DNA from: Octopus vulgaris
Taxonomy: Eukaryota
DNA: 64,000 bases
Reading direction: 5' to 3'
Assembly (NCBI GenBank): GCA_951406725.2
Contig: OX597827.1
Span: 41,540,001 to 41,604,000, forward strand
In this document: positions 8,408 to 63,370 of the stretch, piece after piece
How the letters are laid out: each line of letters opens with the position of its first letter
Numbering within the stretch: position 1 is the stretch's first letter
Translations under genes and position numbers: made by a program
The notes under the pieces: model-generated
What the model was told of the DNA's origin: nothing
Seen by the model: the letters and a program-made list of their open reading frames with translations, nothing else
Database searches by the model: none

Positions 8408-8600
8408 ATACATTATTTACATTATTTACATTTGACGGATATTTGTCCTCATCTTGTTTGTTGTTAACACTACGTTTCGGCTGATATACCCTCCAGCCTT
8501 CATCAGCCGAAACGTTGTGTTAACAACAAACAAGATCAGAACAAATATCCGTCAAATGTAAATAATGTACAAAATTCCACATCTCTTAAAAATGGAGTTC
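8408..8600. mobile_element. Fold-back PLE terminal fragment containing a partial minimal hammerhead
   Basis: 8408-8485 is inverted relative to 8502-8570; minus strand reads CTGATGA-A-GGCTG..CAGCC-GAAACGTA; same family as 43760-43915. Confidence 0.75.
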
Positions 8601-9307: not shown

Positions 9308-9908
9308 TTGAACGCTACGCATCCATTTCCAAGTAAGTTTATTTTCACCTTTTGATGTGACCCTCTTCTCTATACTGTTTTCTTCCTACATCTTTCTCTA
9401 ATTCCCCTTTTATCCCCTCCCTTCTTCACCGTTTTCTATCTGTCTCTATATCTCTCTCCCCTCTTTCTTTTTTCTTCTCTTTCTCTCGTTGCTCACACGT
9501 GATCATCTTTCTTTTCCTGCACGGACATTCAAATGAGCGGACTTTTTTTTCTTTCTCTCTTCTACATATTCTCTTCTTTAAAAAATATGTTTCTCACACC
9601 GTTCACTATTTTCCTCTCGTTCTGGTCTCACGACCCTCCGTGTTTGTTTTCGTTCGGTTTCCTTGTAGGTCCCCAATGTCATTTTTTTGTTCCCAGCTTT
9701 GACCCTCCATAAATCCTAAATTTTATTTTAGAATTTATGGGAGCAACTGTCTTTAAAGACTTTTATTATCGGTGAATGCTCGAAATGAGTAGATAGACAG
9801 CCGACAACTGATGAAGGGCCCTTTCTCTGTGTTTACTTGTCCTGTTTTCCTTTTTCTCGTTGTTTACGTATTTCATGTTGTTTGAACAGTTGGTGACGTC
9901 CGTACCCG
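9308..9908 (+). mobile_element. PLE-like 3' end (subfamily 2) with rearranged hammerhead
   Basis: Colinear homologue of 58868-59512; flanked by (TA)n; contains the 9701-9820 structure. Confidence 0.7.
9701..9820 (+). ncRNA. Non-circularly permuted hammerhead-like ribozyme (partly degenerate)
   Basis: TTA (9763-65) ... TGCTC-GAAA (9782-85) ... CCGACAA-CTGATGA (9808-14); helices GAGCA/TGCTC, CTGTCT/AGACAG, TTATCGG/CCGACAA, GACCCT/AGGGCC. Confidence 0.55.
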
Positions 9909-12642: not shown

Positions 12643-12869
12643 AAAAATTTGATAATTTTGTAATTTTTCTATTTTTGTACTTTTTCTGTATTTTTTTCTA
12701 GAATTTTAATACGTCATTTCAATATGTCCTTTTTATGTTTAATTATCCCAAATTTTTAATTTACGAATAATTTACCAATGTTTTATAACTTTAAGGGTTA
12801 ATTCACTGGTCAGGCCGTTGTCTGTGCAACATCGATATTCCTCTCTCTGTCTGTGAAAACTTGTATCCC

Positions 12870-13260
12870 TGCCGTAAGGCTTCATTTCCACACACGACAG
12901 CTTAATTTAATTCGCCCTTAGTCGAAAGACACCTATTGCTATGTCCTGTTATTATTTTTATTGTATTTGTGTAACATTGTCCGCTTTTTCCGTCCTTGTT
13001 TTTGTATACATTCGCTGCTTTCTTCCAAGGAATCTAATGCTCTTAGCTTAGTTTTTCCTTGGGGCTGGCCAGATTGGAGCAATCTCGAATATAACCAGCC
13101 TAAATTGCAAAGATAATCTGGAACTCGACTGAGGAAAGAAAACTCCGAATGGCCCGCCTTTGTTTTCTTTGTATCGTCTATCTGGATGTTTTGTTGTCCC
13201 CTTTTTTGTATCACCTAACTGTCTGGATGTTTTGCGTTCTTGTCCAATTTTGTATTTTTC
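12870..13260 (+). mobile_element. PLE-like 3' end (subfamily 3) with rearranged hammerhead
   Basis: Same architecture as 26690-27150 and 9308-9908; T-rich tail running into (TA)n. Confidence 0.6.
13019..13141 (+). ncRNA. Non-circularly permuted hammerhead-like ribozyme (G12->T in this copy)
   Basis: GCA-ATC (13082-84)-TCGA ... CCAGCC-TAAA-TTGC ... TCGA-CTGAGGA (13129-35)-AAGAAA; helices GCAAT/ATTGC, TCGA/TCGA, GGCTGG/CCAGCC, CCAGATT/AATCTGG, TTTCTT/AAGAAA. Confidence 0.65.
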
Positions 13261-22424: not shown

Positions 22425-22523
22425 TTCCTTTATTCTCGACATATGTTTCGAAGGCTGCATATTCCTAATTTCGAAGGAATAAGGGGTGTATTATGCCGCC
22501 TTCTCATCAGGAAAAACAAGGAA
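22425..22523 (-). ncRNA. Type I hammerhead ribozyme (mirror copy)
   Basis: Reverse complement of 22646-22744 with intact core. Confidence 0.85.
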
Positions 22524-26354: not shown

Positions 26355-26483
26355 CCCCTTCTTCAGTCGCCTCTGTTTCATCTACTCCGCGTTTCGAAGG
26401 TCAAGGCGAGACACGACTTCGTTGAAACATTCCTTCCCGCAAAAAGCAAATTAAATAAAATTTGCGATTTTATTGCGGAGGGG
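26355..26483 (-). ncRNA. Non-circularly permuted hammerhead-like ribozyme (mirror copy, all core nucleotides intact)
   Basis: GTC (26412-10), GAAA (26395-92), CTGAAGA (26366-60); stem I TCGCCT/AGGCGA is perfect; CCCCT/AGGGG closing helix. Confidence 0.75.
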
Positions 26484-26803: not shown

Positions 26804-26932
26804 CCCCACCGCAAAAAAATCTCAAATTTTATTTAATTTGCTTTTTGCGGGAAGGAATGTTTCAACGAAGTCGTGTCTCGCCTTGACCTTCGAAACGCGG
26901 AGTAGATGAAACAGAGGTGACTGAAGAAGGGG
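26804..26932 (+). ncRNA. Non-circularly permuted hammerhead-like ribozyme
   Basis: TCGT-GTC (26875-77)-TCGCCT ... CCTTC-GAAA (26892-95)-CGCGG ... AGGTGA-CTGAAGA (26921-27)-AGGGG; extra helices GAAGG/CCTTC, TGTTTCA/TGAAACA and the CCGCAAAAA/TTTTTGCGG hairpin. Confidence 0.75.
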
Positions 26933-43517: not shown

Positions 43518-44518
<1,001 letters not shown>

Positions 44519-47059: not shown

Positions 47060-47363
47060 GGCAGTTTGTCTGTGCGTGTTTCTGTGTGTCTGTTTGCTTG
47101 TACCCTCACCCTGACCACGGCTTTCAACCGATTCTGATGAAACTTGACACACACATAGCCCAATGTCATAATTCAAAACTAACGCAGCGAAAATTTTGAA
47201 AAGTTCCCCCAGTTCTGAAAAAAATCGATAAATTCGACATGGGGTCCAGAATCACAAACACAAACCACAAACTGTCTAGGGGACGCAAGTCCACCTTTTT
47301 TTACTCTCAAAAAAAATTTACCATCATTTCCCTTACAAACCTGAGCAACGCCGGGCGATACTG

Positions 47364-58867: not shown

Positions 58868-59512
58868 GCGAATGCAACGCATCCATTTCCAAGTAATTTT
58901 ATCTTCACCTTTTTGACGCGATCCCGTTCTATACTGTTTTCTTCCTTTATCCTTCTCTAATTCCCTTTTACTCCACCTCCCTCTTTCACCATTTTCTATC
59001 TGTCTGTCTTTCTCCTGATCTTTCTCTTTTTCTCTCTCACGTTGCTCACACGTAACCATCGTCCATCTTTCTTTTCCTTATGTGACCGTCTTTCTTTTCC
59101 TGCACGGACGTTCAAAGGACTGGACGTTTTTGTCTCTCTCCTATATTTTCTCTTTTCAAAGAAAATATTTCTCCCAGCATTCACTTTTTACCTCTCGTTC
59201 TGGTCTAACGACCCTCCATGAATGCTTTCATTCGGTTTCCTTGTATGTCTCCACTGTCCTGTTTTTGTTCCCAACTTTGACCCTCCGTACATCCCAAATT
59301 TTATTTTAGAGTTTATGGGAGCAATTGTCTTTGAATACTTAAATTGTCGTTGAATGCTCGAACTGAGGAGTAGATAGACAGCTGACAACTGATGAAAGGT
59401 CGTTTCTCTGTGTTTACTTGTTTTGTTTACCATTTTATCTCTCGTTGTTTACGTATTTAACTCGTTTAACTACGTATTTCATGCTGTTTGAACCGCTGGT
59501 GACGTCCGTATT
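58868..59512 (+). mobile_element. PLE-like 3' end (subfamily 2) with degenerate rearranged hammerhead (59279-59401)
   Basis: Colinear with 9308-9908; GAGCA/TGCTC, TTGTC/GACAA-CTGATGA and GACCCT/AAGGTC are retained; stem III core is mutated. Confidence 0.7.
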
Positions 59513-60296: not shown

Positions 60297-60765
60297 TTCG
60301 GCTTAACATCCCTTACCGTTTGTATTACTGTTATTCTACTTGTCCTGTTTTTTACTGTTTTTATTTGTATTTTTACTGTCTTGCATTGTTTTTACTGTCC
60401 TGTTTTTGTTATCACTTTTACCCCTCCGCAAAAAATCTCAAATTTTATTTAATTTGCTTTGCGGGAAGGACCGTTTCACTGAAGTCATGTCTCGCCTTTA
60501 CCTTCGAAACACGGAGTAGACGAAACGGAGGCGGCTGAAGAAGGGGAATTTTCCTTGTGTTGAATGTCTTGTACCCTGTTTTTTTCGTTGTTTAAAAAAT
60601 GTCCGTTTCCATGGTTTTGTTTTTATGTTTTCGTTTCTCATTGTGTTCGACGTTTTTTTTGGTGTCCTGTACTCATATATGCATGTATATATACATATAG
60701 ATGTAGGTACGTACATATATGTATGTATATATGTATATGTTTTATTTATTATTTTGTTATTATAC
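60297..60765 (+). mobile_element. PLE-like 3' end (subfamily 1)
   Basis: Colinear with 26697-27150; ends at the same TTGTTATTA|TA point as the short arm at 26131. Confidence 0.8.
60421..60546 (+). ncRNA. Non-circularly permuted hammerhead-like ribozyme
   Basis: GTC (60489-91), GAAA (60506-09), CTGAAGA (60535-41); compensatory CCGTTTC/GAAACGG. Confidence 0.7.
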
Positions 60766-60782
60766 ATATATATATATATATA

Positions 60783-61149
60783 CTAGCAGTATCGCCCGGC
60801 GTTGCTCAGGTTTGTAAGGGAAATTACTATAAAGCATTTTTAGAGAGTTATAGCCAAAAAATAGCAAAAAAATGGAAAAAAAAATGATGGTAAATTTTTT
60901 TGAGAGTTAAAAAAGGTGGAGTTGCGTCCCCTAGACGGTCTGTGGTTTGGGTTTCTGATTCTCGACTCCATGTCGAATTTATCGATTTTTTTCAGAACTG
61001 GGGGAACTTTTCAAAATTTTCGCTGCGTTAGTTTTGAATTATGACATTGGGCTATGTGTGTGTCAAGTTTCATCAGAATCGGTTGAAAGCCGTGGTCAGA
61101 GTGAGGGTACGAGAAAACAGACACACAGAAAACGCACAGACAAACTGCC

Positions 61150-62683: not shown

Positions 62684-62848
62684 TGTTCTTTTTTTTCCCT
62701 TTTACGATCCCTTTTGATCGAAAACCTACAATACCTTTTTTTTTGTTTCTTTTGTTTCTTGTTTTTTTTCATACCCCAAAAGAAAAGCTCTACCTTGTAA
62801 CTTGTCCCATCTGTGTGCAGCCCTGTGTGGCCAATAAAGAAACTTATC
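62677..62848 (+). mobile_element. Tx1-like LINE 3' end in (CTAT)n
   Basis: Tail shared with the 37574 and 40033 copies. Confidence 0.8.
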
Positions 62849-62855
62849 TATCTAT

Positions 62856-63370
62856 TCATCTGTCAACACCCGCGAAATGGAGGGCCAGGCATGCCATGGT
62901 GGATGATGCGAAGACATGCGCTGAGACTACAACTCTGGTACTTCATAGACGACGGTGAACAGGTGTGGTCGCCGTTTGCGCGGCGCGCTTTCCCGCAGCT
63001 CATCTCCTTGACCGAACTACAGTCGTGGATCAAACAGAAACCGAGGCTAGGCGAATGGCACCGCGTGTATCGCGTTGCTCTCAAGCAACACTGCCGTCCG
63101 GGACCAAACTTGTGCGACTTCATTACAACAAAGGCGTTCTATAGAGGATTAGTAGAGTGTGGTGCGACGACATTCTCGGGTAGAATCTGGGTGTCGACGA
63201 GGAACACCTGACCCGCTTGTTCAGGATAACTTACGGGCCGGAACCTATGGACAATCACCAAAGGCCCATGGCCTGGCAGTGCTATCGAGAAGCATTACCT
63301 GTTCGGGATAAGCTCTACAGGCACGGTTTGAGACACACTGGACCGACTTGCCCGAGATGCGGTCAGAGCA
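62856..63370 (+). pseudogene. Tx1/L1-clade ORF2 C-terminal fragment (post-RT region with zf-RVT-like knuckle)
   Basis: CQHPRNGGPGMP (GGLG.P motif), TTKAFYRGL, AWQCYREALPVRDKLYRHG..TCPRCG; frameshifted and truncated. Confidence 0.8.

Follow-up and report, generated by a model that had tools for sequence, protein, structure and literature searches.

The window analysed here, a 64,000-nucleotide stretch of the Octopus vulgaris genome, carries at 12813–13255 on the forward strand a copy of a repetitive element that we call F1. The copy is 5′-truncated, comprising the 3′ ~445 nt of the element, and ends in a TA-rich microsatellite. Within it lies a motif at 13019–13141 that the initial annotation had read as a rearranged hammerhead; on recheck, each of the named parts (six helices, the cleavage site and the core blocks) was found in its place, and the reading as a whole holds against paralogs, shuffle controls, pairing across families and the identity of position 13101. 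This motif sits in a dispersed repeat, for which a first look yielded 2,039 candidates across the 2.8-Gb genome.

Read 5′ to 3′, the parts (all on the forward strand) follow in the order X′, H, Y′, Z, stem III strand, C17, stem I strand, linker, Y, GAAA, second stem III strand, Z′, second stem I strand, CUGANGA and X. Helix X pairs TTTCTT (13019–13024) with AAGAAA (13136–13141), which directly follows A9 and is not complementary to 13095–13100. Hairpin H (13025–13062), the fourth arm of a predicted junction, has an 8-bp base in which CCAAGGAA (13025–13032) pairs with TTCCTTGG (13055–13062). In helix Y, GGCTGG (13063–13068) pairs with CCAGCC (13095–13100), which ends in C11.1; the first pair of this helix is G-C in 11 of 11 representative copies, and the first G of its 5′ strand (13063) is predicted to stand in for G10.1. 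Helix Z joins CCAGATT (13069–13075) to AATCTGG (13115–13121) and, by analogy, appears to be the counterpart of the stem I–II interaction helix of type-SGC hammerheads. Between Z and stem III lies an internal loop with a short side, GGA (13076–13078), and a long side (13109–13114, contiguous with the Z strand in 13109–13121); we take this loop, which is alike in related lineages, to match the kink-turn consensus (3-nt bulge, tandem G-A/A-G). The first stem III strand, GCAAT, ends in U16.1 and is followed by C17 (C13084; together 13079–13084), and its partner ATTGC (13104–13108) follows the G12-A13-A14 position (together 13101–13108). The cleavage triplet of this copy is AUC, between stems III and I, and the cut is predicted between 13084 and 13085. 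Stem I begins with TCGA (13085–13088), extended to 13090, and is joined by a 4-nt linker (13091–13094) to the 3′ strand of helix Y; its other strand (13123–13128, with TCGA at 13125–13128) runs into the CUGAGGA core (13129–13135; the two together 13123–13135). Stem I had been described as TCGA/TCGA, and that pairing is present, but the family length is 6 bp (13085–13090 with 13123–13128), so that a palindromic stem I of 4 bp does not describe the family.

This copy had been noted to read TAAA in place of GAAA, with a G expected in the consensus of the repeat. The T at 13101 was confirmed, and the best paralogs carry G in 27 of 29 cases and T in none (0/29). Among 120 distinct full-span F1 copies, position 13101 is G in 108, A in 10, C in 1 and T in 1; the consensus is G, and not the T that had been named as evidence against the proposal. 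A second lesion, A13089 (G in 109/120 copies), breaks the fifth stem I pair and is the sole broken pair of 38 in the window copy. Because 108 of the 120 copies have G at 13101, we conclude that 13019–13141 is a decayed member of its family, with T for G12 and one broken stem I pair. An intact core and an unbroken set of 38 pairs are kept in 7/120 F1 copies; natural paralogs intact in this way are found at loci L004, L016 and L021. G12 is the general base in hammerheads (PMC11300833), and the window copy, which has U there, is predicted to be inactive.

The window holds further copies of the motif. The copy used for comparison, at 26804–26932 (+), belongs to subfamily F2 and contains the same six helices in the same order, as had been claimed. 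Its primary sequence had been called almost unrelated to that of the window copy, and the similarity is indeed faint (67/134 columns identical, with 6/300 shuffles scoring equally well). An inverted F2 copy at 26355–26483 (−) lies in an arm of the inverted repeat 26241–26523/26764–27046, which measures 283 nt, is 96% complementary, contains two F2 copies and has an arrangement typical of Penelope-like insertions. Another F2-type copy is found at 60421–60546 (+), and decayed copies of subfamily F3 at 59279–59401 (+) and 9701–9820 (+). The window copy had been assigned to a third subfamily; it does represent a distinct subfamily, but the genome has more than three. The corresponding loop of F2 and F3, also between Z and stem III, places AGUA opposite GAA (26861–26874/26890–26896 and the F3 copies); we presume this to be a bulged-G (loop E)-like motif in the place where F1 has its kink-turn-like loop.

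Other repeats in the window carry related motifs. Canonical-order hammerhead-like motifs (CUGAUGA, a short stem and GAAAC) of another repeat occur at 8417–8569, which forms a long inverted pair, and at 43830–43860 (−). A further repeat, with CUGANGA followed by GAAG, occurs at 22510 (−), 22659 (+), 44700 (−) and 63399 (+), once as an inverted pair. Copies of a 240-nt repeat at 47079–47318 and 60892–61131 are 95% alike, lie in opposite orientation and contain a CUGAUGA motif each. Similar reading-frame fragments were seen at 62801–63211 (+) and at L043:276-1046, and resemble the zinc-finger part at the C terminus of a non-LTR retrotransposon.

Across the genome, a core pattern that uses the GAAA and CUGANGA blocks alone gave 12,501 matches, compared with 308 for a reversed control. 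We parsed 92 distinct matches from 90 loci, drawn from the first part of the core-pattern match list, for all six helices, and 35 of the 92 scored at least 30; many of the low scorers are 5′-truncated copies. The window copy scored 36.5, whereas 120 controls with shuffled upstream sequence had a mean of 19.3 and a maximum of 25. When pairing was computed within and between families for 11 representatives (the best-scoring intact copies of visibly different groups, hand-picked and related, so that pair counts are not independent), each helix paired at 0.89–0.96 with strands of its own family and at 0.42–0.66 across families, in line with the wholesale compensatory change between subfamilies that had been proposed. 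Columns of these 11 representatives show two to six pair types, with the variety in distal columns; the invariant pairs adjoin the core (the pair U16.1-A15.1, the first pair of stem I and the G-C beside G12). The cleavage triplet follows the NUH rule in 35/35 intact matches (C or A at position 17), and zero-nucleotide junction gaps occur in 23/35. Within F1, lineage-level double changes were detected at three pairs (14/120, 6/120 and 5/120 copies). Individual F1 copies mostly break pairs and seldom compensate, as expected of dead copies. The claim that the fold is selected therefore stands for the signal between subfamilies, but individual copies decay without visible constraint.

These data bear on the idea that the helices arose by chance from complementarity within an AT-rich repeat. 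Minimum-energy folding yields only z=−2.25 and forms X, H and Y without Z or III, and an Rfam scan of 12800–13260 at E values up to 10 returned no hammerhead and one irrelevant match; a scan of the 64-kb window likewise gave no hammerhead among the 150 of 574 matches listed, which were mostly microsatellite. Such results could be taken to favour chance, but neither the folding program nor the Rfam models can represent the crossed order: Z and III are missing from the computed fold for that reason, and an empty Rfam search is expected for a non-circular block order. Together with the excess of core-pattern matches, the shuffle controls and the gap between own-family and cross-family pairing, which refute it, this makes a chance origin barely conceivable.

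To which class of ribozyme does the motif belong? The hammerhead sequence C3-U4-G5-A6-N7-G8-A9 is present beside stem I, at 13129–13135 after the 6-bp stem, and G12-A13-A14 followed by A15.1-U16.1 is present in the family, the stem III pair A15.1-U16.1 being kept in 114/120 F1 copies and the G in the 108 noted above. The order of cleavage site, GAAA and CUGANGA is that of the type-SGC non-circular permutation, known from HRIMA-1 and its variants (Eckert et al. 2023, PMC10085705); the S, G and C blocks lie 5′ to 3′ at 13084, 13101 and 13129. Also present are the short linker between stem I and stem II (13091–13094) and a helix binding their other sides (helix Z). Cleavage in vitro has been shown for type-SGC RNAs, and those tested cut as single motifs while being transcribed; in the accessible parts of that report they come from metatranscriptomes only, with none in the genomes of known organisms (PMC10085705). 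They and the F1 motif are thus alike in block order, in all core letters, in the short linker from stem I to the G12 strand and in having an extra helix that bridges the distal ends of stems I and II.

The two forms differ after A9. In type SGC, the strand that follows A9 is a stem II strand, and Eckert et al. assume that CUGANGA is inseparable from it (PMC10085705), whereas in the F1 motif the uninterrupted C block is absent: A9 leads into helix X, and a hairpin is inserted. In addition, both strands of the F1 interaction helix connect to stem III, and the chain termini lie at helix X. A stem II made from the post-A9 and pre-G12 strands is absent, with 10.1 pairing with 11.1 in 0/35 intact matches. 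A slipped ordinary stem II of at least four pairs is possible in 23 of the 35 intact matches, by eye those of F2 and F3 types; in F1, AAGAAA and CCAGCC are unable to pair in any register, and this lack of complementarity rules out an ordinary stem II there. Because of this, F1 is the case that, as far as sequence goes, should discriminate for a split core. The post-A9 strand pairs instead with X′ and the pre-G12 strand with Y′, and X′, H and Y′ are consecutive and usually unspaced. As the A9 and G12 strands thus pair with segments that flank a hairpin, a four-way junction of core, X, H and Y is predicted to replace the A9–G10.1 link.

We found no precedent for such an arrangement. Known alignments have at most 1–2 inserted nucleotides between A9 and 10.1 (Eckert et al., PMC10085705), and hammerheads described elsewhere have small insertions or an intact G10.1-C11.1 pair (PMC3088659, PMC11300833). 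The PK hammerhead resembles the F1 motif in that its core tolerates different peripheral wiring, but it keeps the standard G10.1-C11.1 pair after A9 (PMC11300833) and the F1 motif does not. Canonical-order hammerheads with a minimal stem III have circular order and an intact stem II and need dimers, whereas stem III of the F1 motif is full and extended. A literature search, conducted mostly outside subscription journals, returned no hammerhead with a helix junction or break between A9 and 10.1, and the type-SGC motif only in Eckert et al. 2023, with none in animals. The motif would work like a hammerhead but lacks a feature that defines the canonical and SGC forms alike.

Helices X and H could be peripheral to a cleaving hammerhead rather than part of its core. 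The minimal ribozyme would then run from Y′ (13063) to A9 (13135), with the chain ends inside the core, and X and H would assist folding or act as a switch. Several features would suit this arrangement: no other helix is as weak as X (3–7 bp, own-family pairing 0.89), insertions of 1–2 nt occur in it in some F1-related lineages, and the octopus Naiad motif has a short version of it. Yet both elements persist, with compensatory changes, in each subfamily and at the Naiad ends of corals and jellyfish; their linkers, of zero nucleotides in 23/35 intact matches, also argue against this arrangement, and we regard a peripheral role as unlikely.

A similarly improbable alternative, to which we give slightly less credence, is that the active form is a domain-swapped dimer of head-to-tail copies, in which the cleavage site and GAAA come from one copy, and CUGANGA and Y′ from the other. 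Many PLE (Penelope-like element) hammerheads have been proposed to act as dimers (PMC4209133), F1 is present in partial tandems, and the closed cage of stem III, Z, stem I and Y looks tight for a monomer, a worry voiced similarly for some SGC RNAs (PMC10085705). Against this, the SGC RNAs that were tested cleave as single motifs, and the A9 junction and the kinked loop could give a monomer the bends that it needs.

If intact copies cleave, the cut might leave traces in the genome as 5′ ends of inserted copies. We mapped the 5′ ends of F1 copies picked solely by a 20-mer of the 3′ tail (739 genome matches), using microsatellite-masked extension of 72 rows, of which 3 mis-scored rows were dropped. 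Eighteen ends fell in 13082–13109, 1 in 13110–13174 and 7 in 13000–13081. The range 13082–13101, chosen with the data in view, held 14 ends against 2.2 expected (P about 1e-7). Over all families (92 rows minus 7 without a close reference), 24 of 85 ends lay between the cut and G12, and the 16 nt just upstream held 2. The drop from 18 ends in 13082–13109 to 1 in 13110–13174 led us to reject smoothly varying copy lengths as the origin of the F1 peak.

Could the same ends arise without cleavage? The motif might be a non-cleaving structure recognized by the reverse transcriptase of the element, or a ribozyme relic, with ends produced by stalling or by (TA)n microhomology. A TATA does lie at 13090–13093, with several ends there; however, a second TATA, at about 13005, drew 0/30 ends compared with 10/51 near the cut (P=0.011), so microhomology alone was rejected as their source. 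Ends are rare where helices X and Z have their 3′ borders (the single end in 13110–13174). Twelve F1 ends lie at 13084–13093, beyond the last helix still paired ahead of the polymerase; because the reverse transcriptase has no paired helix directly ahead of it there, we infer that these ends fit a physical RNA end better than a stall. The retention of 11 core letters and of an allowed position 17 across unrelated subfamilies also speaks against a structure that does not cleave.

In favour of a non-cleaving structure, RNA sequencing (three raw-read runs from one study, aligned to the window copy and to one full-length copy) revealed no pile-up of ends at the cut. This is a weak test of cut ends, because the libraries were fragmented and reads come from both strands. 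The RNA reads carry the changes at 13090 and 13123 at similar frequencies, together with a C-to-A change at position 17. Four reads with two starts, all from one run (X22), span a tail-to-start join from L286:2172 to 1511, which a genomic tandem and a circular RNA explain equally. Overall, we consider a non-cleaving structure or relic improbable to a degree beyond the dimer, and retain the reading in which intact copies cleave.

The element that carries the motif is small. The F1 unit is ~745 nt long (735–750 in long copies, which extend no further than about 745 nt), is non-coding and starts sharply after (TA)n; loci L001–L030 contain no relevant stop-free stretch of 200 codons. A piece of its own 3′ end directly precedes 16 of 30 long copies, and F1 occurs in partial tandems as well as in inverted pairs. 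A GTAAGT resembling a splice donor lies ~30 nt after the F1 start (L286:1545-1550), ahead of a long pyrimidine-rich tract; the reads of the three runs contained no splice joint at this site.

Insertion at (TA)n targets, 5′ truncation, partial tandems, tail pieces and inverted copies are hallmarks of Naiads and other PLEs (Craig et al. 2021, PMC8557442), and all are present in F1. Naiads and F1 are alike in these hallmarks and in having no canonical hammerhead: Naiads and other Penelope-like elements were reported to be without one, and the accessible parts of the Naiad paper do not describe a rearranged ribozyme (PMC8557442). They differ in that Naiads are 3.4–4.4 kb long and encode an N-terminal GIY-YIG endonuclease together with a reverse transcriptase in one frame, whereas F1 is about 745 nt and lacks this frame. 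By eye, we recognized the rearranged wiring in the 3′ ends that precede the Naiad_Ovul and Naiad_Omin headers of the published consensus file (PMC8557442), ends that by file order would belong to two other Octopus consensus sequences. It was also seen in 6 of 11 Naiad ends from that source (Bfor, 3_Chem, three near-identical Acropora sequences and 2_Movir) and was not seen by eye in the ends of Mley, 1_Chem, 2_Chem, 4_Chem and 1_Movir. One published Naiad end with the rearranged motif bears the flag 'HHR_half_core' (PMC8557442). The ends of Naiad-1_Movir, 4_Chem, 1_Chem and 2_Chem, which are without the rearranged hammerhead, share other structured motifs (supplement S5 of PMC8557442).

The octopus Naiad motif taken from the published ends has 315 exact matches in the O. 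vulgaris genome. Two of the alternative motifs at Naiad ends look to us like a twister ribozyme, and Naiads may exchange ribozyme classes among themselves. Thirty sampled Naiad-type loci have the same helices, a loop like that of F1 and a short helix X; all are short and have no ORF. Neither these 30 loci nor the long F1 copies yielded a protein-coding partner of F1. By analogy, the behaviour of F1 resembles that of a non-coding passenger carried by a Naiad-type element. Animal non-LTR retrozymes are likewise non-coding, tandem-prone and ribozyme-bearing, and are presumed PLE passengers, but they have type I hammerheads in tandem arrays, whereas F1 carries the rearranged motif and is dispersed for the most part (bioRxiv 10.64898/2026.07.22.740005). 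The retrozyme feature of a type I hammerhead in each tandem unit is absent, as the F1 motif is not type I; in its accessible parts, the preprint relied on type I models only (bioRxiv 10.64898/2026.07.22.740005).

Taken together, these data make it probable that 13019–13141 is a decayed copy of an SGC-order hammerhead-type RNA whose intact copies are likely to self-cleave after C13084, and in which a four-way junction is predicted to take the place of the link from A9 to stem II. In such an RNA, helix Y would act as stem II, with the G upstream serving as 10.1, and helix X and hairpin H would hold A9 in place. Helix Z would clamp the far ends of stems I and Y by means of the kinked stem III extension, and G12 and G8 would act as in other hammerheads. 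Cleavage of head-to-tail or read-through transcripts would free the RNA of the element and so make templates, as has been proposed for the transcript cutting of PLE hammerheads (PMC4209133). A Naiad-type reverse transcriptase and endonuclease, acting in trans, may then copy the RNA into (TA)n sites, with copying often stopping at the cleaved 5′ end.

We lean, somewhat less firmly, towards a broader reading: that Naiad-type elements in several animal phyla, together with their non-coding passengers, carry an active hammerhead topology outside the six published permutations, with the core opened between A9 and G10.1. On this joint reading, held with the same reserve, the core would be rebuilt as a four-way junction with a kinked stem III cage, and would set the 5′ end of a transposing RNA. 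F1 would be the best case in which to test this, since an ordinary stem II cannot form there. If true, non-circularly permuted hammerheads would move from unidentified environmental RNAs into animal genomes, with more than 12,000 recognizable copies, and the published assumption that CUGANGA cannot be separated from its stem II strand would break. It would also give a testable answer to the question of why Naiads seemed to be without hammerheads, and to whether Penelope-like elements need a ribozyme.
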